Positions 4,100-53,700 are shown, numbered from the stretch's first letter. The stretch is DNA of 57,698 nucleotides from Minisyncoccota bacterium (GCA_937936355.1 CALDDM010000028.1:1-57698), one strand, 5' to 3'. Program-made: numbers and translations. Notes: generated by a model not told the origin, from the letters alone.

Positions 4100-5035
4100 A
4101 TGCAACAGTATTTAGATTTGATTAGGCGGATTAAAAGTGAAGGTACGCATAAGGGTGATCGGACTGGTACTGGCACGCAAAGCATCTTTGGTCATATGAT
4201 GCGCTTTGACCTTAACAAAGGATTTCCATTGGTTACAACCAAAAAAACCAATCCGAAGTCAATTATTCATGAGCTTCTGTGGCTAGTGAGCGGATCTACA
4301 AACATCAGATATCTTGTCGAAAATAACGTCGGGATCTGGAATGCGTGGCCTCTGAGGCGCTATGTAACAGAGACGACGAATGACTTAGATGGTTTAACCC
4401 CTGGATCAGAAGCTTACAAAGCTGCAATTTATAAGTACGAGAAATATTTCTTGAGCCAAATTGTTTCAGATGATGCATTCTCTGCAAAGTGGGGTGAGTT
4501 GGGTCCGGTATATGGAAAGCAGTGGAGGTCTTGGGAGTGCCCAAATGGTGAAAGGATCGATCAACTGCAAAAAGCAATTGACGAGATTCAAGACAATCCG
4601 ACATCGCGACGCATCATTGTGACTGCTTGGAATCCTGCTGATGTGGAAGAGATGGCGAAAGCTGGTCTTCCTCCATGTCATCTTGAATTTCAGTTTGGTG
4701 TTGCTGACGGTAGATTGTCATGCTCAATGCTTCAGAGAAGTGCGGATGTGTTCCTTGGTGTGCCCTTTAATATTGCAAGTTATGCGTCACTGACGATGAT
4801 GGTCGCGCAGGTGTGCAATCTTAAGCTTGGAGACTTTGTCCATTTTCTTGTGGATGCGCATATTTATGCAAATCATCAAGAGCAAACAGACTTGCAGCTG
4901 ACAAGGGAGCCGCATAAATTGCCGGTGATGCGGATTAACCCAGATGTGTTTCACATCGACCATTTTACTTTTGATGACTTTACTTTGGAGGGGTACGAGG
5001 CGCATCCGCACATCATTGGGGATGTTGCAATTTAG
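4100..5035 (+). CDS. thyA: Thymidylate synthase ThyA (long form with ~45-aa insert)
   Basis: '[11 protein letters not shown]…[12 protein letters not shown]…FPLVTTKK…IIHELLWL', catalytic 'LPPCH', C-terminal 'IGDVAI'. Insert after 'GIWNAW' resembles the long Lactobacillus casei-type ThyA. Start set at ATG 4100, matching ThyA N-termini. Confidence 0.95.
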
Positions 5036-5042
5036 GTTAGCG

Positions 5043-5080
5043 ATCTCGACTTGCTGTATGCGGGTCGAGATGTTTTTTTA
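5043..5080 (+). terminator. Hairpin plus U-tract between thyA and folA (terminator/attenuator candidate)
   Basis: ATCTCGAC (5043-5050) pairs with GTCGAGAT (5064-5071), followed by T7 (5073-5079). Overlaps a TATAAT at 5079-5084. Confidence 0.45.
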
Positions 5081-5097
5081 TAATAACCGTGGATAAT

Positions 5098-5619
5098 ATG
5101 AAAATAATATTGATTGCTGCGGTTGGTCAGCGCAGAGAGATTGGAAAGGCTGATGAGATGATATGGTCTGTGCCTAGTCATGACGAGCGAATTGATACTA
5201 TGACAGCAGGGCATCCAGTAATTATGGGGCGCAGAATGTGTGAATCTTCGTGCGACCTTAGGGATCGACTAACCACCCAGACGTGCATTGTGTTAACTCA
5301 TCGTAAGCTGCATGGGCAAAAAGTTCATGAAAGTCTTTATAGTGCAGAGAGTGTGCAAGAGGCTCTCAGTATTGCGCGGCAATCTGAGGGTGGTGAGGAG
5401 TGTTTTGTGTTGGGCGGAGCAGAAATCTATAGGCAATTTCTTCCATTTTGCAGTGTGTTAGAATTGACAGAGGTAGAGTTGGTGGATCCACATGCTGATA
5501 CAAAATTTCCACGATGGGAGAGAGGTGATTTTCGAGAAGTTTTGCGGGAGAGCTATGAGGAGGATTCTCTGCGGTATCACCGCGTTCGTTATGAAAAAAA
5601 AGATACTATTTACGTATAG
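5098..5619 (+). CDS. folA: Dihydrofolate reductase
   Basis: 'MKIILIAAVGQRREIG…MIW…HPVIMGRR…VLGGAEIY' is the DHFR pattern; adjacent to thyA. Confidence 0.85.
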   Translation: MKIILIAAVGQRREIGKADEMIWSVPSHDERIDTMTAGHPVIMGRRMCESSCDLRDRLTTQTCIVLTHRKLHGQKVHESLYSAESVQEALSIARQSEGGEECFVLGGAEIYRQFLPFCSVLELTEVELVDPHADTKFPRWERGDFREVLRESYEEDSLRYHRVRYEKKDTIYV

Positions 5620-7533: not shown

Positions 7534-9015
7534 ATGGCGCAGTATAACGTGACAATTGGGATGGAGATACATGTGGAGCTTAAGACGCAGAGCAAGATGT
7601 TTAGTGGTGCTCCAAATGGATTGGGAGAAGAAGACGTGTCAAATATATCAATTGATCCAGTAGTTACAGCGCAACCAGGTGCATTGGTCGTGCCAAATAA
7701 ACAAGCGATCGCATTTGTGCAGATGGCTGGTCTCGCACTTGATTGCGAAATCGCTACAAAGAGTAAGTTTGATCGTAAGCATTATTTTTATCCCGATCTA
7801 CCGAAGGGATATCAGATTTCACAGTTTGACGAACCCCTCTGTGGTCCCGGGCATATCATGCTGGATGTGGGTGGACAGCAAAAACGTATAGGAATTACTC
7901 GTATACATATGGAGGAAGATACTGGCAAGAATGCACATGTCGGTGGCTCAACATATGTTGATCTTAATCGCGCTGGTGTGCCACTTATGGAGCTTGTGAG
8001 TGAGCCTGATATAAAAACTGGGGAAGAAGCGCGCGCTTTTTGTCAGAAGTTGCAGCAGATTTTTCGATATATAGGCATCTCTGATGCAGATATTGAAAAA
8101 GGTCAAATGCGCTGTGAGGTAAACCTTTCCCTCTATAAGGACGGTGATGATCCGCTGAGTGGAACTAAGGTTGAGGTAAAGAATATTGGTTCTTTCCGGA
8201 GTGTGCAGCGAGCCGCGCAGTACGAGATAGCACGACAAACAGAGATTTTAGAAGAAAATGGTCAGATCGTACAAGAAACGCGAGGTTGGGATGATTCTGC
8301 AGGTAAAACAATCTCACAGCGATCCAAGGAGAATGCTGATGACTATCGGTATTTTCCTGAGCCCGATATTCCACCGATGACTTTTGATGAGGAATATATT
8401 GAGTCACTACGACGGGCGCTGCCAGAGTTACCATCTCAAAAATATGATCGTTTTGAACGAGAATATGGTGTGCGTACAGAGAATCTTGATGTTATCACTG
8501 CGACGAAAGATTTTGCGGATTATTTTGAGAATGTCGTTAGTGAGATTCGCGAAAAAATCCAAAGTAAAGAAGCGGGTGCAGATGAAAAAAAGCTTGTTCA
8601 GCTTGCAGCAAATTATCTTGTTAGTGAAGTGCAGAAACATTTGATTGAAAGTGATGATGACATCTCAGAGATAAAAATTACTCCCGAAAATTATGCAGAA
8701 CTTATTGCAATGGCGGGTGATGGAACGATTAATTCAAGCGCAGCTCAGACGGTGTTAGCTGAGATGTTTATCTCAGGTGGTGACCCAAGTCACATTGTGC
8801 AAGAGAAAAATCTTGTGCAGGAGAGTGATGAGGGAGTCTTGCATGACGTGATTGAAAAAATTCTTGCAGAAAATCCAGATTCTGTTGCAGACTTTAAAGC
8901 GGGTAAGGAGAATGCACTAAAATTTTTCATGGGGCAAATTATGAAAGAGACAAAGGGTAAGGCAAACCCATCGCTTGCAATGCGTCTTTTGCGCGAGACA
9001 CTATCTGAAAATTGA
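7534..9015 (+). CDS. gatB: Asp/Glu-tRNA(Asn/Gln) amidotransferase subunit B
   Basis: 'IGMEIHVELKTQSKMF', 'FDRKHYFYPDLPKGYQISQ', C-terminal YqeY-like tail. gatA and gatC are not adjacent. Confidence 0.95.
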   Translation: MAQYNVTIGMEIHVELKTQSKMFSGAPNGLGEEDVSNISIDPVVTAQPGALVVPNKQAIAFVQMAGLALDCEIATKSKFDRKHYFYPDLPKGYQISQFDEPLCGPGHIMLDVGGQQKRIGITRIHMEEDTGKNAHVGGSTYVDLNRAGVPLMELVSEPDIKTGEEARAFCQKLQQIFRYIGISDADIEKGQMRCEVNLSLYKDGDDPLSGTKVEVKNIGSFRSVQRAAQYEIARQTEILEENGQIVQETRGWDDSAGKTISQRSKENADDYRYFPEPDIPPMTFDEEYIESLRRALPELPSQKYDRFEREYGVRTENLDVITATKDFADYFENVVSEIREKIQSKEAGADEKKLVQLAANYLVSEVQKHLIESDDDISEIKITPENYAELIAMAGDGTINSSAAQTVLAEMFISGGDPSHIVQEKNLVQESDEGVLHDVIEKILAENPDSVADFKAGKENALKFFMGQIMKETKGKANPSLAMRLLRETLSEN

Positions 9016-9029
9016 TTTGTCAAAATTAA

Positions 9030-9038
9030 TGGTATAAT
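9030..9038 (+). promoter_or_regulatory. Extended -10 element TGGTATAAT upstream of first pilin
   Basis: TGnTATAAT at 9030-9038, 28 nt upstream of ATG 9067. Confidence 0.4.
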
Positions 9039-9066
9039 TAGGTAGAAATTATACGATTAGTTAGAT

Positions 9067-9591
9067 ATGCTCCCAAAAAATAAAAAGGCATTTACAATTG
9101 TTGAATTGCTACTTGTGATAGCGATTATCTCACTCCTGGCAAGTATTGCGTTGGTGCGTCTAGATGTTGCTCGCAAAAATGCACAGGAAGCAGCGTATGT
9201 CACATTTGGATCGCAAATGAAAAAGTTGATCGATTTTGCTATATCTGACGGTGCCTTTGAAGGTATCTCGCCAACGAGCTGGGGGTGTTTAGGCAATTAT
9301 AGTGATACAAGTTCTGGTGGGAGCGGTCTCACATGTCACCCAACACCAGCTCTGAGTAATCAGATTAGCCTTGATACAATATTAGCTCGTTATAATGACA
9401 GGGAGCTTCCTCAGGGTGTGCAAACACCACACATGCCTGCGGGCATTATGTACAGGTTGACCAACACACGGCAAATAGAAATTATCGTATACACAGGCAA
9501 TGGTCATACTGACATGTGTAGTAAGGAAATGGGGTTTGATCAAGTTTCTTTTGTTGGATTAGACTACTGTCGCTTAATACTCAATCAGTAA
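9067..9591 (+). CDS. Type IV pilin-like protein (cassette 1)
   Basis: Class III signal 'MLPKNKKA|FTIVELLLVIAIISLLASIAL' with E5; four Cys (WGCLG…C, DMC…C) as in the other three pilins. Confidence 0.85.
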   Translation: MLPKNKKAFTIVELLLVIAIISLLASIALVRLDVARKNAQEAAYVTFGSQMKKLIDFAISDGAFEGISPTSWGCLGNYSDTSSGGSGLTCHPTPALSNQISLDTILARYNDRELPQGVQTPHMPAGIMYRLTNTRQIEIIVYTGNGHTDMCSKEMGFDQVSFVGLDYCRLILNQ

Positions 9592-9595
9592 ATTA

Positions 9596-9787
9596 ATGTC
9601 CTATCTCCATAAAATACAATCAGCTATGCTTGAGAGGCATGGCATACATTTAGAGCATAAAACTATATATCAGGTAGGTGCGATATTTTTTTTGTTTTTG
9701 ATGTTGATAGCATTTCAGCTATTTAAGCCTATTCCTGCCGAATATCAATATGATGGTTCTGTTGATCCTGTTGCTAATAGTCTTTAG
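9596..9787 (+). CDS. Small single-pass membrane protein paired with pilin (cassette 1)
   Basis: 63 aa, starts 4 nt after the pilin stop. 'KIQSAMLERHGIHL' head, TM 'VGAIFFLFLMLIAFQLF', short tail. Family of four in this window. Confidence 0.55.
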   Translation: MSYLHKIQSAMLERHGIHLEHKTIYQVGAIFFLFLMLIAFQLFKPIPAEYQYDGSVDPVANSL

Positions 9788-9869
9788 GTACGTATAGGCA
9801 TGAACTGTGGATAAATAACTTTCCTGTTTAACTTGATTACTGCTAGACTAAAAGAGAATAAAAAATGTT

Positions 9870-10400
9870 ATGCATATAGTTGTTAAGAGGTTTAAAGGAG
9901 GCTTTACGCTTATTGAGCTTTTGATTGTTATTGCGATTATAGGAATTTTAGCTAGCATTACTTTGGTGAGTCTCAATCAAGCGCGAGATAAGGCGAAGAA
10001 GTCAGCGTACATCGCTGAGGTTCGCTCTTTGGTTGGGGCTGTTGAGGTTGCCATAGCAGACGGTGCGTTTGAGGGCGTACCAACAACGAGTCCGTATTGG
10101 GGCTGTCTAGGTCAGGCTCCGTGCTGGACAGGACAATCAAGCAAGACAGAGATTGATGCTGCTATTTCATCTGTGGCAGGTAGCTTACCACCAGCACCTC
10201 TTTCGCCTGCCAGAGATACGCATGGAACTTTGATACGTGTTTCACAAGCTGGTGCAACGCCTTGGGTTCGCATTTTTGTTTATGTTGGAGCAGGCAATCA
10301 AGATATGTGTAATCAATTTGGCCTAAAAAATGAGGTAAACTCTAATCCAATAGCACATAGCTCTGGCCACTCATGTGATGGCTTGTTTAGACTAAGATAA
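9870..10400 (+). CDS. Type IV pilin-like protein (cassette 2)
   Basis: 'KGG|FTLIELLIVIAIIGILASITLVSLNQARDKA'; four conserved Cys. Confidence 0.88.
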   Translation: MHIVVKRFKGGFTLIELLIVIAIIGILASITLVSLNQARDKAKKSAYIAEVRSLVGAVEVAIADGAFEGVPTTSPYWGCLGQAPCWTGQSSKTEIDAAISSVAGSLPPAPLSPARDTHGTLIRVSQAGATPWVRIFVYVGAGNQDMCNQFGLKNEVNSNPIAHSSGHSCDGLFRLR

Positions 10401-10404
10401 GAAT

Positions 10405-10596
10405 ATGTTTTCAGTATTCCACATTCAAAAAATTCTCAATGAGAAATATAATATAAGTGTATCAAAAGGAATTATAAAATCTACTCTGGGATTGTTTCTA
10501 GCACTATTTATTCTTGTCTTGCTTGTGTCATGTACGGACGAAACGCTCCAAAAGTCGGACCCTAGCGTTGTCATTGATCCACCAATCGATTTATAA
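10405..10596 (+). CDS. Small single-pass membrane protein paired with pilin (cassette 2)
   Basis: 63 aa, 4 nt after the pilin stop. 'HIQKILNEKYNISV' head plus TM 'LGLFLALFILVLLV'. Confidence 0.55.
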   Translation: MFSVFHIQKILNEKYNISVSKGIIKSTLGLFLALFILVLLVSCTDETLQKSDPSVVIDPPIDL

Positions 10597-10643
10597 AGGG
10601 ATGATATTGAATTTTCGTTTGATTGAACAAATAAATTATTGAA

Positions 10644-11171
10644 ATGTTGTCTATGGGAAATAAAATAACAAAGGGCTTCACACTTATTGAGCTTCTTATT
10701 GTTATAGCGATTATTGGTATTCTTGCGAGTATTACCCTAGTTAGCCTTAATCAGGCGAGAGATAAGGCGCAGAGATCTGCTTATATCTCTACAATCAGTA
10801 GTTTGGTGCGTGGAACGCAGGTTGCGGTAAATGATGGTGCTTTTGATAGTTTGCCAACTACTGGATGGTCGTGTTTGGGGGACTATGCGGCCAGTGGGAA
10901 AAATTGTTGGGGCTCTACCTATAGCAATAACCCTACAGTAGATGCAGCAATTACGACTGTCGCATCGTTACCGCCTGGCGTCACGTCTCCAGCAAATGAT
11001 AATTATGGGGCACTGCTTCGTGTTGTGGCAGGTAGCTATGTTCGCTTCCTTGTATATGTAGGGCCTGGTAATCAAGATTTATGTGGTCAGTTTGGTTTGT
11101 TTAACAATGTTAATACGCAGCCACTATTGAGAAATGCAAATGCTTGTCAAGGATACATATCGCTTCAGTAG
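10644..11171 (+). CDS. Type IV pilin-like protein (cassette 3)
   Basis: 'ITKG|FTLIELLIVIAIIGILASITLVSLNQARDKA'. The 32-aa mature N-terminus is identical to cassette 2 but has ~16 synonymous DNA differences. Confidence 0.88.
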   Translation: MLSMGNKITKGFTLIELLIVIAIIGILASITLVSLNQARDKAQRSAYISTISSLVRGTQVAVNDGAFDSLPTTGWSCLGDYAASGKNCWGSTYSNNPTVDAAITTVASLPPGVTSPANDNYGALLRVVAGSYVRFLVYVGPGNQDLCGQFGLFNNVNTQPLLRNANACQGYISLQ

Positions 11172-11217
11172 GCTATAATAAAATGATGTCGGTGCTTTCA
11201 TTTAAATATAACATGCT

Positions 11218-11397
11218 ATGATTGCAAAACTACAAAGAGCTCTTTCTGAAAAATATAACCTTACGATCCCCCTCAAGACGCTAAAACTTATGTTGATGTT
11301 GGTATTGGGCATTTTTGTTTTAATAATCTTCTTGCCAATTGTGAGCAGTGGAGGGACTGTGAAGAACCAAGAAACTAATGTCCCTGTTCCTGAATAG
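11218..11397 (+). CDS. Small single-pass membrane protein paired with pilin (cassette 3); absent from the ORF track (59 aa)
   Basis: My own translation: MIAKLQRALSEKYNLTIPLKTLKLMLMLVLGIFVLIIFLPIVSSGGTVKNQETNVPVPE*. Same head motif and TM as the other three. Confidence 0.5.
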   Translation: MIAKLQRALSEKYNLTIPLKTLKLMLMLVLGIFVLIIFLPIVSSGGTVKNQETNVPVPE

Positions 11398-11569
11398 ATT
11401 TTTGCCGATGATTGTTATGTATTTGTGATCTCAAGTGAAGTACATTCTTAGATTTAGGATTTTATCTAAATGATCTAGATTTTTGATTGTTGCTGTGGGT
11501 CAGATTGCTCATTTGTTTGTTGTAACGTTAGTGATCAGGGTGGGGTAGATTTATATATAATAAAAGAAT

Positions 11570-12109
11570 ATGAATAATGTTTTTGTAAAAGGATTTACCT
11601 TGATTGAACTTTTAATTGTTATAGCTATTATAGGCATTCTTGCAAGTATCACTTTGGTGAGTTTAAATGAAGCTCGTGTTAAGTCAAAAAATGCTGCGTA
11701 TACATCATATGTGGCAAGTGTTACAGGTCTTGTTGAAGCTACAATTGCAGGAGGAGGTTTTGAAATCTTGCCTGCTTCACCAAGGCATGGTTGTTTGGGT
11801 GACTATGGTGGAAGGTCATGTTATGGGACAGGTACGTGGAATGCCAATGATCTAAATGTTTCAGATGGACTCAATGAAAGAATGCGACAATTTGGGGACA
11901 TACCAGAGGGTCAAAATTCACCTCATAATCAAGATCTTGGTGTTGGGATTTATTATGTCAATAGTCAGAGGTCTGTTAGGGTGTATGCATTTGGTGCTGG
12001 TGAAAATTCGGCGGAAAGAAATGTCAATTGCCAAGGTTATGGGTGGGCGAATGTTGTTAACCATTCTTCAACGAATTGTTATACAAGTATACCAATCGAC
12101 ACCAACTAA
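11570..12109 (+). CDS. Type IV pilin-like protein (cassette 4)
   Basis: 'VFVKG|FTLIELLIVIAIIGILASITLVSLNEAR'; four Cys (HGCLGDYGGRSC, NC…NC). Confidence 0.88.
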   Translation: MNNVFVKGFTLIELLIVIAIIGILASITLVSLNEARVKSKNAAYTSYVASVTGLVEATIAGGGFEILPASPRHGCLGDYGGRSCYGTGTWNANDLNVSDGLNERMRQFGDIPEGQNSPHNQDLGVGIYYVNSQRSVRVYAFGAGENSAERNVNCQGYGWANVVNHSSTNCYTSIPIDTN

Positions 12110-12160
12110 GTGCTTTCTGACGTGAAAGTTGAATTTAAACAATAATGTAGACTTAATGTT

Positions 12161-12361
12161 ATGACTGATATAATTTTGAAAATTCAAAAAGCCTTATCAA
12201 GTCGCTATGGTGTCAATCTTGATAAAAAAAGTATTAAGCTGGTTTTGATGCTACTAATGCTCACTTTGATTTTTGTATTATTGCTTATTGCATCAAATCC
12301 ATTTGCAGAAAATACGACATCTGATTTTGGTCAAGACCCTGTAATAGAGGTAGGTGAATAA
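12161..12361 (+). CDS. Small single-pass membrane protein paired with pilin (cassette 4)
   Basis: 66 aa; 'KIQKALSSRYGVNL' head plus TM 'LVLMLLMLTLIFVLLLIA'. Confidence 0.55.
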   Translation: MTDIILKIQKALSSRYGVNLDKKSIKLVLMLLMLTLIFVLLLIASNPFAENTTSDFGQDPVIEVGE

Positions 12362-12386
12362 ATAAATCCTTTGACATCATTTGTTC

Positions 12387-12920
12387 ATGAATATTCATCA
12401 TATTGACAGAGAGAATTACGAACGTGCAACGATGTGGAGTCGTCATGCTGATTCGCGAGCCAGTATAATCCTTGCTTTTAATGCAGCTCTTGTCGCCCTT
12501 CTTGTGACGGAAAATCCTTACACACATAAGTTTTCAGAAGTTTTGCATGGACATGAGTATGCATCATGGGATGGGGCTGTTGCGTGGGGTGTGATTCTAT
12601 TTGCACTTTTCCTCTTGCTTTTTATTGCATCAAGTATCAGTGCGTTTCTTGTGTTGATGCATGATGCACGTAAGACGAGGTGCGAACATAATACAGTTTT
12701 TTCATGGATGAATATCACCGACATCTCACGAGAGGAGTATCGTCGCAAACTTTTTGGAGTGAATGATGTGCAAACAACACATGCCTGGGAGGATCAGACG
12801 TATATGGCAGCGCAGCTTGCTCGTACGAAGATGCGATGGTTGGCACGTGCGTGGATTACTCTCGCAGGAAGTATCTTGTTTAGCGTCTCTTTCGTTGTTT
12901 TAACGATCTTTTTTGTGTAA
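12387..12920 (+). CDS. Three-TM membrane protein; N-terminal region reminiscent of the DUF5706/Pycsar-effector-type TM domain (tentative)
   Basis: '…WSRHADSRASIILAFNAALVALLV' followed by two further TM helices; resemblance judged from memory of the family profile only. The ORF track starts at TTG 12381; ATG is at 12387. Confidence 0.45.
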   Translation: MNIHHIDRENYERATMWSRHADSRASIILAFNAALVALLVTENPYTHKFSEVLHGHEYASWDGAVAWGVILFALFLLLFIASSISAFLVLMHDARKTRCEHNTVFSWMNITDISREEYRRKLFGVNDVQTTHAWEDQTYMAAQLARTKMRWLARAWITLAGSILFSVSFVVLTIFFV

Positions 12921-13001
12921 CTTTCTAAGTTGTGCTAGTAAGTTACCTAATTTATTTAGTGTCATGTGTTTTTAGGTATCTTTCTCGTATTTTAGTCTTC
13001 T

Positions 13002-13673
13002 TTAAAAAAGAGTGAGAAATCTTTTGTGATTCTGTGATGTGGGGAGATTTGGTATTTCTTTGGGTGCATTAATTTTCTCTAAACGCAAAAAATAGTAGAT
13101 ATTTGCAACAACTTCTCGAAAGAAATAATAGGGCTCTTTTGGGTAGCGTCCAAAATGATATGTGGCTGCATGTAGATCAAAGTGATCAAGTCCAATTTGG
13201 TGTGCGATGAGTTTAATACGACCTAAGTGAAAATCATTTGAAACGAGAACGTAGGACTCTTTAGAGTCTCGCAGGCTGAGGTTGGTGAGTGTGGCAATTG
13301 TGTTGTTGCCGTCATAATCGTAGACAAGGACAGATTCTGGTATGCCTTGATCTAGAAGTACTTTTTTCATCACATCAACTTCGTGAGATCCATATGTGCT
13401 TGCTCCGCCAGAGAGCACAAGGCACGAGATACGTTCTTGTGTGAAGAGGTTTGCAGCGCTCAGGGTGCGATCTGCGAGTGCGTGTGATGGTATATCTCCC
13501 CGCCAGACAGCAGCGCCAAAGATGACGCCGCATGTGCGTTTTGTGTCAGCGCTTGAGAAGTAATGCCATAAGACATGACTGGAGCTGAGTAGACCGATGC
13601 AGAGTATGATAAAAAAAAGCGCAACTAATATGCGGATGATCTGCCACAACCCTTTTTTGCTTTTGGTAAACAT
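13002..13673 (-). CDS. SanA/YdcF (DUF218) family envelope protein
   Basis: N-terminal TM, 'FGAAVW…PSHALADR', 'LVLSGG…HEV', 'VLVSNDFHLGR' are the DUF218 pattern. Confidence 0.75.
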   Translation of the reverse strand: MFTKSKKGLWQIIRILVALFFIILCIGLLSSSHVLWHYFSSADTKRTCGVIFGAAVWRGDIPSHALADRTLSAANLFTQERISCLVLSGGASTYGSHEVDVMKKVLLDQGIPESVLVYDYDGNNTIATLTNLSLRDSKESYVLVSNDFHLGRIKLIAHQIGLDHFDLHAATYHFGRYPKEPYYFFREVVANIYYFLRLEKINAPKEIPNLPTSQNHKRFLTLF

Positions 13674-41812: not shown

Positions 41813-41970
41813 CAGTAGAAAAGACTCCTTTCGTCGGGTGTTCTTTTTTTATATACACTATCTAGGATTAGTTGGGCTTTGTTTTTTTGAGTGTTGATTG
41901 TGCGTGAAATTTTTTACATTCTGTGTTTTCAGTGCTAGGATTGTGTGTTATCCGCAATGAGACTGCCTTT

Positions 41971-43461
41971 ATGTCTTTGCATCGTGCACAAGTATTGTTT
42001 TGGGGCTCGCTTGGTTTCGTGATTGGTGTGACGTCTGTTTTTGTTCTGGAGCCACGTCGTACAATATGGACGTGTGTCGCTCTTTCCTTTGTTTGTGTGG
42101 GTATTGTAGGATATTGTATCCAGCGCAGAAAGTCGGTTGTGAACTGCGCGCGATTGGATGATGTGCGTTATTGGTGTACTGCCATACTTTTGTCGGCAGT
42201 ATTTGTCGTTGTAGGGGTATTGCATTGTGATCACACGTTGCACCAACATGATCATTATGGACTCGCCGGTGAGAGTGTGACATTGCATGGTGAAGTTGCG
42301 CGGCAACCCATACGGAGTGAAAAGTTTCTTAATTTTGAAGTGCAAGAGCATGGTAGTGATCTGCGCGTTCTTGTGCGTGGTGCAAAATATGCAGGATTTT
42401 CGCTTGGAGATGAGCTTGGTATTACGTGTGTGCTGAAGGCACCGGAAGTGTTTAATGGATTTAACTATCCGCGTTATCTACAGATGCGTGGCGTGCATTA
42501 TCTGTGTGATGATGCGGAGGTTACCTTAATCTCTCCTGGAACAGGCTTTCTTGCTCGGATCGCTCGTTTTCGTACAATGATTGAGGCGGATTTAAATACG
42601 CTCATTCGATCACCAGAATCTGGTCTTGCAAGCGGGTTGCTTTTTGGGGGTGATGATCGTCTATCGCAGAAGCTACAAGATGCTTTTTCTCGGACAGGGA
42701 TGAGTCATATCGTTGCTGTTAGTGGTTACAATGTGAGCGTTATCATTATGGTAATTACAGTTGTGGGGATCTATTTGGGTCTCTGGCGTCGGCAGGCATC
42801 GATTCTCTCCATTATTGCGATTGTTCTTTTTGTTGCGATGATTGGCTTTCCATCGTCAGGTGTTCGTGCTGCTGTGATGGGCATGATTGTATTGTGTGCT
42901 CTTATCTATGGTCGTGCTGTCCATGCATTTGGTGTCGTCATCTTTGCGGCAGCGCTTATGCTTGTTTGGAATCCATTGCAGATCGCGTATGATGTAGGAT
43001 TTCAACTTTCTTTTGGTGCTGTGTTGGGTATCATGGCTTTTGTGCCTGTGCTCGAGCATTTTGTGCAAAACTATAGAAAGATACCGTTTATAGTAGAGAT
43101 TCTCTTTGTTACGATAAGTGCGCAGTTATTTGTGTTGCCGATTATTGTGTATCATTTTATGACGTTTTCAAGTGTCTCGTTGCTTACGAATCTTTTTGTC
43201 TTGCCAATTCTTCCATTCACAATGTTCTTTGTTTTTGTGACAGCGGTGATGTCGCAGATATGGTTTCCAATAGCATTTTTCTTTGCGTTGATCTCCCAGG
43301 TGCTTTTGGCATATGAGATTGCAGTTATTACATATTTTGCAGAGCGCTCATGGAGCTCTGTGGAAATCACAGAATTTTCATGGGTATTGGCCGTGCTGTA
43401 CTACAGTTTCCTTGTGGGCATCACCGCATTCTTTAACCATAAGGGTCTCTATAGGAAGTAG
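41971..43461 (+). CDS. comEC: ComEC/Rec2 DNA-uptake channel, membrane (DUF4131 + Competence) part only
   Basis: 'ASGLLFGGDDRLSQKLQDAFSRTGMSHIVAVSGYNVS' competence-domain motif; more than 8 TMs. No MBL domain in this ORF. Start set at ATG 41971. Confidence 0.85.
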   Translation: MSLHRAQVLFWGSLGFVIGVTSVFVLEPRRTIWTCVALSFVCVGIVGYCIQRRKSVVNCARLDDVRYWCTAILLSAVFVVVGVLHCDHTLHQHDHYGLAGESVTLHGEVARQPIRSEKFLNFEVQEHGSDLRVLVRGAKYAGFSLGDELGITCVLKAPEVFNGFNYPRYLQMRGVHYLCDDAEVTLISPGTGFLARIARFRTMIEADLNTLIRSPESGLASGLLFGGDDRLSQKLQDAFSRTGMSHIVAVSGYNVSVIIMVITVVGIYLGLWRRQASILSIIAIVLFVAMIGFPSSGVRAAVMGMIVLCALIYGRAVHAFGVVIFAAALMLVWNPLQIAYDVGFQLSFGAVLGIMAFVPVLEHFVQNYRKIPFIVEILFVTISAQLFVLPIIVYHFMTFSSVSLLTNLFVLPILPFTMFFVFVTAVMSQIWFPIAFFFALISQVLLAYEIAVITYFAERSWSSVEITEFSWVLAVLYYSFLVGITAFFNHKGLYRK

Positions 43462-43484
43462 GTAGGCCATTAAACATTTGTTCT

Positions 43485-44336
43485 ATGAGGAAGAATATTT
43501 TACTTACGATACTATTTCTCAGTTTTTGTGTGAGTACTTTGTGCGCTCTCACACTCTATGAGCTTAATCGGTTTGCGCCTGTACAGGTTGCGTTTCTTGA
43601 TGTTGGGCAAGGTGACGCTATACTCATCACAGAAGGGTCATATCAAATCCTCATTGATGGCGGTCCGGATGGTCGTGTTCTGCTTGAGGAAATTGGTCGT
43701 TACATGCCTTTGTGGGATCGTACAGTGGAATTGGTGATTGCAACGCATCCTGATAGTGATCATATCGATGGTCTTGTTGATTTGGTTCAAAATTATAATG
43801 TTGAGCAGTTTTGGGGTATTGATTTGAGAAGGCAAACAAATGTATTTGCTGCACTTGAGAGAAATTTACGTAATCGCGAAGTTCTTGTTCAATATCCAGA
43901 GCGAGGTTGGCATGTTTTGCTTCCATCCGGCGCGAAGTTGGAAATTATCTACCCATTTGTTGCAGGTGATGTGGTTGGTTTTGCAGATGAGCCAAATAAT
44001 GCAAGTATTGCGGCGATATTTACAACTGCTGATGAGAAGTTTTTTCTTGGTGGAGACTTGCATAGTGCGGTGGAGGATTTGTTGCCAATTGATCGTTCAG
44101 TAACAGTTTTGAAATCGAGTCACCATGGGTCTGGCACGTCAACATCGCAATATTTCCTGAACCGCACAATGCCACGAGATGTCATTATTAGTGCTGGTAA
44201 GGATAATCGATACAATCACCCCAAAGATGAAGTGCTCGATCGTATTCGTCGATCTGTTAAGAATGTCTACCGCACAGATCATCAGGGAAGTATTGTATAT
44301 CGATGCTTGGATTTCTGTACCGTTAGTCATGACTAG
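43485..44336 (+). CDS. ComEC-type metallo-beta-lactamase domain protein encoded as a separate gene with its own signal anchor
   Basis: 'FLDVGQGDAILI', 'IATHPDSDHIDGL', 'LKSSHHGS', 'YNHP' are the ComEC C-terminal MBL motifs. N-terminal TM 'ILLTILFLSFCVSTLCALTLY'. Confidence 0.85.
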   Translation: MRKNILLTILFLSFCVSTLCALTLYELNRFAPVQVAFLDVGQGDAILITEGSYQILIDGGPDGRVLLEEIGRYMPLWDRTVELVIATHPDSDHIDGLVDLVQNYNVEQFWGIDLRRQTNVFAALERNLRNREVLVQYPERGWHVLLPSGAKLEIIYPFVAGDVVGFADEPNNASIAAIFTTADEKFFLGGDLHSAVEDLLPIDRSVTVLKSSHHGSGTSTSQYFLNRTMPRDVIISAGKDNRYNHPKDEVLDRIRRSVKNVYRTDHQGSIVYRCLDFCTVSHD

Positions 44337-50755: not shown

Positions 50756-53700
50756 ATGGATTTTCCCCGCAAAACAAAAAAAATACATTTTATCGTAATT
50801 GCAGTTTTTCTTGCGGCTTCTTTTGGTGGTTGGGAATCAGCGCATACTTTTGTGGAACCGTCTAGTACGCCGCCTAATGGCAATGTAGGTGCTCCAGTGA
50901 CGATACAGTCACCTGGACAGACGAAAGCAGGTTCTCTTACTGTAAATACTGACGGTGTTGCTTCGGAGGGACTGGTTGTTGATAAGGGTGAGTTTGAAGT
51001 GCGTGATGGAGAATCAAGTTTTTCTAATGGTACATATAGTGACCCTGATAGCGGTAATTCTTATGATGCAAAATTTGGTGGCTCTAACCGTGGTGTTGCT
51101 GTTCGGGGTACAAGTGTTTTCTTGGGTCCGGTAGGCATTGTCGATACGACTCCTGACGGCACGCTTAGTCTAGATGTTGACGGTGAAATTGGTGCGCAGA
51201 GCTATTGTGATGAAGATGGATCTAATTGTTATACTGTGCTAGAGCTTCTAAATGGGGGTGCAGGTAGTATTGATAGTCTCTCAGATGGTGTGAGTGATGA
51301 GACGACTAATGTCTTTCTTGGGACTGGCGCAGGCGCTGGAGATACCACAGCAGCATATAATAATACAAGTCTAGGTATCGATGCGCTGAATGCTAATGCA
51401 TCGGGTAGCTCAAATACTGCCCTTGGATTTCGCTCACTTTATCGGAATACGTCTGGCTCTAATTCTGTCGCAATTGGTTACAATGCACTTCGGGAAAATC
51501 TAACAGTGAGTAGTAGCACAGCTGTTGGTGCTAGTGCACTGCGCTCCAATACAACAGGCTATGGTAACGTTGCTGTAGGGTTTGCCTCGCTATACAAGAC
51601 AACGTCAGGCGGTGGCAATACAAGTGTTGGCACAGCGTCTCTCTATGAAAATCTCTCTGGCGCAAGTAATACCGCGGTTGGTGGTAATACATTGCGAGAT
51701 AATGTTACTGGTAATCGCAATGTCGCCGTTGGTGAAAATGCACTTCGACTGGTAACGCAGGGGAGTGATAATGCTACGCTTGGCTATCGTGCTGGCTACA
51801 ATGTAACAACATCCAATAATAACACGTTTATCGGTGCGTATGCTGGTGATGATGTAACGTCGGGTGCTCGCAACATCTCTATCGGATATGGGAGTGAAGT
51901 GGCGAATCCTACAGCAAGTGATCAGCTTTCCATTGGTAATTTTATCTACGGAACCGGTTTGAATGGTTATGATACTGCTATCTCGCCTGGACGGATCGGT
52001 CTGGGCACCAAGACTCCTGAGCAACAGTTAGATGTGTCGGCTCCCGGGTACGCAGGACTTCGTGTAGGTACTTCGTCAAATAGTGGTAACAATGCTTTTA
52101 TAGAGATTGAAGGTGCTCGCACAACAAGCACTACGGAGAATATTTCATCTGTGCGATTTAACAATAATGATGCCGGTGCCGACTATGAGGGTGCGCGTAT
52201 TGCAATTCGTAACTCGGATGCTGTGAGTGGTACTGCTAACACAGATTTGGTTGTTTCAACAAACAACAATACTGGACCCCAACAGGCGATGCTCATTGAC
52301 GATCAAGGAAATGTGGCGATTGGTCCTACGGCTGATCCCCAGGCAAAGCTTGATGTGATTGGCGATATCGTTTCTCGTAATGGTGGCAATGAGATTGTGC
52401 GGATTAATAATACAGATGATTTCACAGCGGAGCCAGATATTCAGATTTTTACAGATGGTGGTGTTGCTGCTGAAGGTGACTTGAATTTGAATATTGATTC
52501 GGACAGTGATGAAGTTGATCGTGCGCTCAAGATCAATAGTAATGGTAATAATGCCTCAGCTACAGAACTTGCACGCTTTAACGAAGATGGAACGGTGGGT
52601 ATAGGTGATGCGACTCCGGATGGTACGCTTAAGTTGGATGTGGAGGGGCAAATAGGTGCGACCGAATATTGTGACGAGAACGGAGCGAATTGTGTCCCAG
52701 CAGGAAGTACGGCTGCGACGAACTTTCTTGCTCTCACAGACACGCCAGCAACATCCACTGCAGGTTCTATATATTTTGGTGACGGCACGAATGTGGCAGA
52801 AGACAATGCGAATCTTTTTTGGGATGATGTGAATAATAGGTTGGGTATAGGAAAAAGCGCGCCAGGGGTAACGCTTGATATCGATGGAACGACTGCGATT
52901 GCCGGCGGAGACTTTAATTACTTTTTTGCTAATACGGGAGCTGGTAGTGTTCAAATCCCTTACCGTATGAAAGCAAACGATGGCGTAGGTAATTTTCATG
53001 TCTACATCAACACAAATGGTGGTGCTTCTCCAATATATGATTCTAATGGCTTTGCATATCATGAAGTTTACAATCCTGCCGATGGCCAGTATCGCGTTCA
53101 GACTGCCGTTAGCGGTACGCAGGGTACACCTTTAACCTGGCAAGATGCTTTTACTGTTGCGGGTAATGCTACGGTTGGTGTAGGTGACACCACACCCGAT
53201 GGATCTCTCAAGTTAGATGTGCAGGGACAAGTAGGTGCTACTGAGTATTGTGATGAGAATGGTGCAAATTGTACGCCTGCAGGCAGTCTCAGTGGTTCCG
53301 ATACATTCCTGGGCCTCACAGATACGCCAGCAACATCCACCGCAGGGTCGATTTATTTTGGTGACGGGTTAAATGTGGCAGAGGATAATGCAAATCTTTT
53401 CTATGATGACACGAATAATCGTTTGGGTCTTGGAACGACGTTGCCTGAGGCGCGCTTACAACTAGGTGATGGTGCTGCGCAAGCAAACAATTATATAGCC
53501 TTTGGTAAGCGACTTGCAGCATCTCAAGTTAATCTGCCCTTCATTGGACAGGACTCTGTCGATGGTGTGGAAAATGGTATAGGTATTGGTGCAAGCTCCT
53601 CTAATGGAGGTGTCAATTTCTATGCAGGAAGTGCGACAGCTTTTAATCCGGCTAATTTACGTATGCGTATTGATCCAGATGGCGATGTGGGCATTGGAGA

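Follow-up and report, generated by a model that had tools for sequence, protein, structure and literature searches.

The Pilin-Partner Array

A 57,698-nucleotide (nt) stretch of DNA from a Minisyncoccota bacterium (GCA_937936355.1, CALDDM010000028.1:1-57698; the whole stretch is hereafter called the window) carries, between positions 9067 and 12361, four consecutive two-gene cassettes on the + strand. Each consists of a gene for a predicted type IV pilin followed by a gene for a much smaller protein with a single predicted transmembrane (TM) helix, which we call the partner (Table 1). The partners belong to a new small-protein family that is tied to pilin genes in Candidate Phyla Radiation (CPR) bacteria. 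The arrangement was initially noticed by a model reading the DNA alone, without database searches (the first-pass annotation); open reading frame (ORF) calls match all eight of its coordinate pairs exactly, and the distances from pilin stop to partner start, which it had placed at 4–51 nt, measure 4, 4, 46, and 51 nt.

Table 1. Predicted features of the pilin-partner array, followed by other features of the window
Feature	Coordinates	Strand	Supporting matches and orthologues
Pilin 1, type IV, 174 aa, four Cys	9067..9591	+	PF07963, 29.2 bits; TIGR02532
Partner 1, 63 aa; head, single TM, tail motif EYQYD..DPVANS	9596..9787	+	Orthologues in L166, L167, L081/P0005
Pilin 2, type IV, 176 aa, four Cys	9870..10400	+	PF07963; TIGR02532; AlphaFold2 model
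Partner 2, 63 aa; lipobox-like LLVSC at Cys43	10405..10596	+	Orthologue in L166
Pilin 3, type IV, 175 aa, four Cys	10644..11171	+	PF07963; partial orthologue in L166
Partner 3, 59 aa	11218..11397	+	Family profile, 62.8 bits
Pilin 4, type IV, 179 aa, four Cys	11570..12109	+	PF07963; orthologue C-terminus at start of L082
Partner 4, 66 aa	12161..12361	+	Orthologue P0006 in L082; AlphaFold2 model
gatB	7534-9015		
PycTM-domain (Pycsar effector-type) membrane protein	12381-12920	+	Pfam, 28.1 bits; PADLOC PDLC02364, E 1e-19
ComEC DNA-uptake channel	41923-43461	+	Competence PF03772 and DUF4131
Metallo-beta-lactamase domain of ComEC, separate ORF	43485-44336	+	
Predicted secreted protein, 771 aa	44527-46842	+	DUF4215 Cys-rich repeats; ~95-aa internal duplication
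ORF, 2072 aa	50642-56860	+	No Pfam match

The Large ORFs as Type IV Pilins

All four large ORFs match Pfam N_methyl (PF07963) at 29–35 bits, above the gathering cut-off of 21.2, and both of the pilins that were compared with NCBIfam (1 and 2) score 25–35 bits with TIGR02532 (cut-off 16.3). The class III signal with Glu5 described in the first-pass annotation is present in each, the processing site being A/FTIVE in pilin 1 and G/FTLIE in pilins 2–4. Every pilin also contains exactly four Cys residues at matching positions, as had been claimed: 74, 90, 151, and 168 in pilin 1; 79, 85, 147, and 169 in pilin 2; 77, 88, 147, and 168 in pilin 3; and 75, 84, 154, and 170 in pilin 4. Across an alignment of this subfamily, conservation is complete for one of these Cys and at least 90% for each of the remaining three. 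Pilins 2 and 3 share an identical run of 32 residues starting at Gly −1, within which 16 codons differ synonymously (19 nt), in keeping with the earlier count.

An AlphaFold2 model of pilin 2 built from 30 subfamily sequences (pLDDT 87.6) has a helix spanning residues 14–63 followed by an alpha/beta head, which is the lollipop shape of a pilin fold. The best match to this model in a fold search is the type IVb pilin of enterotoxigenic Escherichia coli (9iuf), and it is weak (E 0.029, TM-score 0.42). Orthologues of pilin 1 are 92%, 74%, and 68% identical in amino acid (aa) sequence in loci L166, L167, and L081, respectively; the L166 orthologue of pilin 2 is 83% identical, and that of pilin 3, comparable over the N-terminal 60 codons only, is 95% identical. 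By motif, and in pilin 2 also by modeled fold, the four large ORFs are type IV pilins or prepilins.

The Partner ORFs Are Genes under Purifying Selection

The closest relative of the window that was found is L166, from the Logan assembly of SRR25757609, with 78% DNA identity overall and 88% identity in GatB. As in the window, gatB is followed there by cassettes 1 and 2 and then by the beginning of pilin 3; the recurrence of the cassette order in an independent assembly at this distance upholds the earlier judgment that these are old copies, not an assembly artefact. Between the two loci the ratio of nonsynonymous to synonymous substitution (dN/dS) is 0.054 for gatB, 0.022 for pilin 1, and 0.072 for pilin 2, compared with 0.111 for partner 1 (68% aa identity) and 0.142 for partner 2 (65%). 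Differences at the three codon positions number 14/6/30 in partner 1 and 16/9/30 in partner 2, so the coding signature on which the first-pass annotation had let its proposal hang is present both in the low ratios and in the third-position excess. In more distant pairs synonymous sites are saturated and dS is undefined, yet the proportion of nonsynonymous differences is far below that of synonymous ones. Judged from these substitution patterns, the partner genes are real and under purifying selection, and they evolve two to five times faster than their pilins.

The database gene call for partner 1 (P0004) starts at Met11, giving a protein of 53 aa. The ten residues upstream of this Met are kept in orthologues, and because these conserve the longer N-terminus, the start at 9596, giving 63 aa, is the more likely one.

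Anatomy of the Partner Protein

Partner proteins are 59–73 aa long over the family. In each, 21–27 residues precede a hydrophobic segment of 17–25 uncharged residues, after which there is a tail of 11–28 residues; in each of the four window partners this segment is the single strong hydrophobic one, consistent with the one TM helix originally predicted. The head sequences of the partners are s1, KIQSAMLERHGI; s2, HIQKILNEKYNI; s3, KLQRALSEKYNL; and s4, KIQKALSSRYGV. The first-pass annotation had written a shared motif for these heads; such a motif exists, but the exact form given does not hold, the real one being looser. It lies at residues ~5–25, is the sole family-wide element, and reads phi-x-K-[IV]-Q-x-x-[LI]-x-x-[KR]-[YFH]-[GN]-phi-x-phi-...-K/R-x-phi, with the Gln kept in 12 of 13 aligned members. 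An AlphaFold2 model of partner 4 (eight sequences, pLDDT 71) shows a helix at residues 2–16, a turn at [YF]-[GN], a TM helix at 22–45, and a disordered tail.

In none of the eight members scored for charge is the head net acidic, and in most of them the tail is; the tails contain proline. The common architecture is a mostly basic amphipathic head of ~22 aa, one TM helix, and a mostly acidic tail of ~20 aa. The positive-inside rule predicts an N-in/C-out topology, which would be that of an unassembled pilin. Within orthologous groups, identity is 46–76% in the head, 33–63% in the tail, and 18–58% in the TM segment, which is the least conserved of the three or at best equals the others. Tail motifs can be recognized at the group level (group 1, EYQYD..DPVANS; group 4, NPF.EN; L171–L173, VPDE(I/V)RN(M/L)), and the tail, described as variable in the first-pass annotation, is conserved only inside such groups. 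This pattern suggests that the head is generic in function and the tail cassette-specific.

Two further features bear on possible processing. Partner 2 and its L166 orthologue (2432-2623), alone among 17 members, carry a lipobox-like LLVSC at Cys43; judging by this motif, partner 2 might be lipid-modified or cleaved. In several members the segment ends in small residues (IAS/N, IAA/T, VSS/G, LTS/N, and VNS/R).

A Narrow Family Tied to Pilin Genes

When a four-member partner profile was run exhaustively with HMMER against 1.84 billion representative proteins, only three others besides the four window partners came back. A word-indexed search returned the window proteins alone with a four-sequence profile and added P0008 with an eight-sequence profile. 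The four members from outside the window that were reached in this way, from the partner side, all come immediately after pilins (L081, L082, L083, and L011/L164/L165). Most further members were missed by the first hidden Markov model (HMM) and were found by reading the contexts of related pilins. Pattern-based locus searches with the whole partner family or the whole pilin-head alignment found no stretch conserved enough to use, and pattern searches by subgroup returned only contigs and genomes already in the set.

In total, the family comprises 18 members from at least 11 metagenomic samples or metagenome-assembled genomes (MAGs), which are Moranbacteria-like wherever the record names an organism. 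An HMM of 17 members recovers every member at E ≤ 1e-16, together with a truncated copy in L167 at 2e-5; beyond these, nothing in ~175 loci reaches an E-value below 0.1. Partner 3, which lay below the ORF-track cut-off of the first-pass annotation, has E 1.4e-17 with this profile, being itself among its building sequences.

The first-pass annotation had proposed adjacency to pilins in related genomes as a check, and 17 of the 18 members lie directly 3' of a pilin, 3–76 nt beyond its stop codon, in five unrelated neighborhoods: gatB/PycTM, HPF/acetyl-CoA synthetase-like, RNase III/SMC, integrase-adjacent, and the end of a pilM-pilN-pilO operon. In L081, the end of gatB is followed by a 174-aa pilin and a 64-aa partner. 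L082 begins within the C-terminus of the pilin 4 orthologue and continues with P0006 and then PycTM and DUF218 genes, like the window. L083 contains an integrase, a 189-aa pilin, and a 68-aa partner, while L011, L164, and L165 share the order pilM, pilN, pilO-like, 125-aa ORF, 163-aa pilin, partner of 62–65 aa, and class I aminoacyl-tRNA synthetase. There are two partners each in L166, L167, and L174, one of 72 aa in L169/L170, and one each, of 70–73 aa, in L171, L172, and L173, which have entirely different neighborhoods. This recurrence of a pilin plus a small ORF with a coding signature in other genomes is far beyond chance.

The association is specific to one kind of pilin. About 15 of 19 pilins of the four-Cys subfamily have a partner, compared with a single one, that of L011, of the ~130 other pilin-like ORFs in 80 pilin loci. 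Distance matrices of pilins and partners are strongly correlated (Mantel r = 0.82, p = 2e-4), and the cassettes are therefore inherited as units.

Three side observations arose from these loci. A second, unrelated family of small membrane proteins lies beside pilins of the same subfamily (L168 4125-4298 and 4314-4514; L174 5799-6038); its members begin with a TM helix at the N-terminus, after which comes CCD...Y.EYLWWERK..L..LFG, and the one member scanned against NCBIfam (L174 5799-6038) had no match. The gene adjoining the pilin-partner pair of L083 (1-747, − strand) is tyrosine recombinase/integrase-like, and some cassettes may be mobile. Finally, the records of L001, L011, L084, L088, and L176 are labeled Bdellovibrionales, Pseudobdellovibrionaceae, or Micavibrio despite Moranbacteria-like loci; the GatB proteins of these MAGs are 61–66% identical to that of the window and their pilins are of CPR type, and the labels are probably taxonomic mislabels.

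Genomic Context and Expansion of the Array

The array lies between gatB and a PycTM-domain gene, beyond which there is a DUF218 gene on the − strand. The window GatB is 61–66% identical to those of Candidatus Moraniibacteriota MAGs; by this similarity the host is a Moranbacteria-type CPR bacterium, as the first-pass annotation had guessed at the level of CPR. Pfam scans of ambiguous ORFs and a reading of the remaining translations found no pilus-machinery genes in the window, in agreement with the reported absence of pilB/C/D/M-Q, and no window ORF besides the four pilins has a prepilin motif. GC skew is 0.16–0.29 where genes are on the + strand and ~0–0.08 over 30–38 kb, where they are on the − strand.

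No + strand terminator-like site was found in 8800-13100, and the pilin-partner gaps fold weakly (−6 to −8 kcal/mol). Promoter-like sites are mildly more frequent in the region than in shuffled sequence (22 versus 14 ± 3.5). Coupled expression of pilin and partner is plausible, given gaps of 3–22 nt in 11 of 15 pairs and the lack of a + strand terminator in the region.

Relatives of the window differ in the number of cassettes. L169/L170, with GatB 80% identical, are syntenic with the window from ribosomal protein L11 to gltX and contain a single cassette at the position of the array, with PycTM before the cassette and not after it; the number is at least two in L167, at least three in L166, and four in the window. 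Because the count varies from one to four among relatives whose GatB proteins are 74–88% identical, the four-cassette array is a lineage-specific tandem expansion in a shallow clade. In the nearest species representatives of GTDB (GatB 61–66% identical), there are no pilins beside gatB.

Cassettes also diverge, by sequence identity, far faster than the genes surrounding them: between the window and L169, GatB is 80% and PycTM 81% identical, but pilin heads are only 25–34% and partners 18–28% identical. The PycTM neighbor itself is 89% identical (aa) in L082 and 81% in L169/L170.

A Proposed Role for the Partner

The pilin gene is the sole constant neighbor of the partner gene across the five contexts, and this constancy, together with tight spacing and co-inheritance, supports a function on or together with the cognate pilin. 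With moderate confidence, we propose that each partner is a cognate pilin accessory, that is, an escort or assembly adaptor conceptually resembling TfpY. Each cassette would produce a pilin and its dedicated small bitopic membrane protein together. The partner, which lacks a prepilin motif and is not a pilus subunit, would insert beside the unassembled pilin in the cytoplasmic membrane in the same N-in/C-out orientation, where the two may physically interact. Its external tail, conserved only within an orthologous cassette, would recognize the head of the cognate pilin, and its mostly basic amphipathic head, with the motif common to the whole family, would perform a generic cytoplasmic job, for example, docking to the assembly platform or keeping the prepilin assembly-competent. 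The outcome would be efficient or selective loading of the cognate pilin into the pilus. Tandem duplication of one ancestral cassette followed by fast divergence would then leave the cell with a set of alternative pilins and a separate helper for every one of them. A related pilin-partner pair is found within the pilMNO operon of L165.

Several observations weigh against this proposal or against parts of it. The family is narrow, so that the function of the partner must be dispensable for most CPR pili. Four pilins of the subfamily (L001, two in L168, and one in L174) have no partner. Conversely, the partner at L174 4694-4891 lacks a pilin immediately before it: its upstream neighbor is a 67-aa hydrolase fragment, and the next pilin (5001-5546) starts 110 nt downstream, an arrangement that looks like a cassette broken or rearranged. 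Identity is 56% between pilins 2 and 3 but only 22% between their partners, which is not simple co-divergence. Moreover, the pilin heads of L083 and L011 are only ~20% identical to those of the window, and because partners follow pilins with quite different globular domains, any recognition code between tail and head is hypothetical; the contact surface could be the nearly invariant N-terminal helix of the pilin instead.

Alternative functions must be weighed against the same data. The partner would be the precursor of an exported peptide if its hydrophobic segment were a cleavable signal (a lipoprotein signal in cassette 2) and its acidic, proline-containing tail of ~20 residues the product, released or lipid-anchored and decorating, capping, or signaling alongside the pilus. 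A layout in which the leader is conserved and the product varies is familiar from precursors, and in rap-phr cassettes short signal-peptide-bearing pro-peptides are encoded next to partner genes; the tail motifs kept within groups (EYQYD..DPVANS and VPDE(I/V)RN(M/L)), the LLVSC shared by partner 2 and its L166 orthologue, and the small residues ending several TM segments all fit such a scheme. We nevertheless consider it unlikely. Sec-cleaved signals have a short n-region, an h-region of 7–15 residues, and a lipobox or AXA site, whereas an n-region of 21–27 residues and an h-region of 17–25 residues are both on the long side for a signal that is cleaved and of the length usual in a signal anchor, and the lipobox is confined to 2 of 17 members. 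Conservation over the family is greatest in the cytoplasmic head, a part that a simple Sec signal could do without; the strict adjacency to pilins goes unexplained, and no processing or export genes lie nearby. A negative regulator, by which the pilin is sequestered or the membrane pool of pilin reported so that one pilin is polymerized at a time, would amount to switching between pilins with no rearrangement of DNA. Larger membrane proteins are often regulated by small single-pass ones, the linkage to pilins serves a gatekeeper as well as a helper, and the rise in copy number from one through at least two to four within the clade fits a repertoire that requires selection. Gaps of 4 nt, however, predict roughly equimolar synthesis, which suits an escort better than a switch, and no sensor kinase or regulator is consistently nearby; we judge a gatekeeper improbable, while acknowledging that sequence data alone do not separate it from a helper.

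A structural part in the pilus or its base, as a co-displayed subunit or membrane anchor, is brought to mind by the L011/L165 pair, which closes a pilM-pilN-pilO operon, and by a topology resembling that of bitopic components of the PilN/PilO type. It is nonetheless very improbable: without a prepilin cleavage motif or Glu5 the partner cannot polymerize as a pilin, its hhalign probabilities against the PilN and PilO-like proteins of L165 are below 1%, and a core component is not expected to be duplicated with each pilin, to evolve faster than the pilin, or to be absent from most CPR pilus loci. That the ORFs are non-functional and merely carried along by pilin duplication might be supposed from their shortness, their lack of Shine-Dalgarno motifs, and their more rapid divergence. 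Such motifs precede only 2 of the 33 window genes, however, and because they are nearly unused genome-wide, their scarcity is uninformative on gene status. With dN/dS values of 0.10–0.19, third-position-biased substitution, and a frame, length, and architecture kept over at least 11 genomes and five neighborhoods, this reading is effectively refuted.

Significance

Type IV pili are regarded as central to host attachment, movement, and DNA uptake in CPR/Patescibacteria (PMC11623550, PMC10633639). CPR pilins are hyper-variable, and the partner family bears on how one pilin or another is selected and handled. At ~60 residues, with a conserved cytoplasmic head and a cassette-specific tail, the partner offers a minimal and tractable system for pilin escort or selection. 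A bolder version of our proposal, which we regard as doubtful, is that the partners are the first pilin-specific single-pass membrane adaptors, and that the set of cassettes, through specific tails and docking heads, selects which pilin is loaded. If this were true, an ultrasmall episymbiont could change its pilus surface, and with it host-binding or DNA-uptake specificity, without DNA rearrangement. If the partner is only a lineage-specific stabilizer, the addition is modest: a new small-protein family of narrow range.

Many genes of this kind are invisible to annotation, being unnamed, with one start mis-called and half of the family missed by the first HMM. Because they escape in this way, small ORFs beside genes for CPR surface proteins merit systematic attention.

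Other Features of the Window

The PycTM-domain gene 3' of the array has no cyclase gene alongside it. The ComEC genes (41923-44336), in which the metallo-beta-lactamase domain is encoded by a separate downstream ORF, place a competence component in the same window as the pilin array. In the 2072-aa ORF a 30-residue Cys motif, GDTTPDGTLKLDVEGQIGATEYCDENGANC, recurs at least four times (nt 52604, 53183, 54899, and 55445); the product is probably a giant surface protein.

Comparison with Known Systems

Searches of Pfam, NCBIfam, PHROGs, PADLOC, and PDB sequences gave no match to the partner family; what the phage and defence libraries returned were noise-level matches to the TM segment, and the PDB sequence search returned spurious ones. 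The first-pass annotation had left room for a match to a characterized pilus-assembly family, and none emerged from these five collections.

In size class (~50–80 aa), possession of one hydrophobic helix, and encoding in pilus loci, the partners resemble Flp/Fap pilins of the Tad (type IVc) systems. In Flp prepilins a G/XXXXEY processing motif marks where the hydrophobic helix starts; this motif is absent in 17 of 17 aligned partners, ~22 polar residues precede the helix, and there is no match to Pfam Flp, so that Flp identity was rejected, as was pilin identity in general for want of a prepilin cleavage motif and Glu5. The short cytoplasmic N-terminus with a conserved motif, single TM helix, and external remainder recall PilN/PilO (GspL/GspM-type) proteins, in which such a motif is a cytoplasmic docking site (INLLP in PilN, which binds PilM). 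PilN and PilO, however, are ~190–230 aa long, have a folded external domain, and occur as one copy per machine; the partner has a different head motif and no folded external domain. Kinship was rejected on hhalign probabilities of 0.2% against the PilN and 0.1% against the PilO-like protein of L165 and on the absence of a Pfam match. Kinship with PycTM was likewise rejected: 1 of 13 members gave a weak match (E 0.0011, 17.8 bits), and hhalign against the neighboring PycTM protein gave 0.4%.

The array itself resembles the multiple pilin loci of Saccharibacteria, an ultrasmall episymbiont lineage, in which fast-diverging pilins with near-identical N-terminal helices are encoded away from the machinery (PMC11623550). 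A term search of the main text of that report found no mention of a small downstream partner ORF.

The first-pass annotation knew of no described pilin partner of this type. For the family itself this stands, as no account of a ~60-aa pilin partner was found in the searchable literature, but a conceptual precedent exists in TfpY, TfpX, and TfpZ of the Pseudomonas aeruginosa group III–V pilin cassettes and in FimB of Dichelobacter nodosus (PMC11841053). TfpY-like accessory genes lie directly 3' of the pilin gene, and their products interact with the pilin and promote assembly without entering the fibre, by a mechanism that is not known even in Pseudomonas (PMC11841053). The partners differ from these proteins in several respects: TfpY/FimB proteins are 170–245 aa long with three TM helices and a periplasmic beta-rich domain (PMC11841053), whereas partners are 59–73 aa long with one TM helix and no folded external domain; a Rho-independent terminator separates the two genes in TfpY/FimB cassettes, whereas there is none here and gaps are often 3–12 nt; and TfpY/FimB belong to Pseudomonadota, whereas the partner family occurs in Moranbacteria-type CPR. 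Compared with the published description, then, the partners do not fit the TfpY/FimB family in size, TM count, domain content, or terminator. What the two share is a gene placed right after the pilin (here in 17 of 18 cases, at 3–76 nt) and encoding a non-pilin membrane protein whose cytoplasmic N-terminus is short and whose more variable external part is proposed to give pilin specificity. The partners thus add a new small-protein family in CPR to the pilin-accessory cassettes that, as such, are already known in Pseudomonadota.

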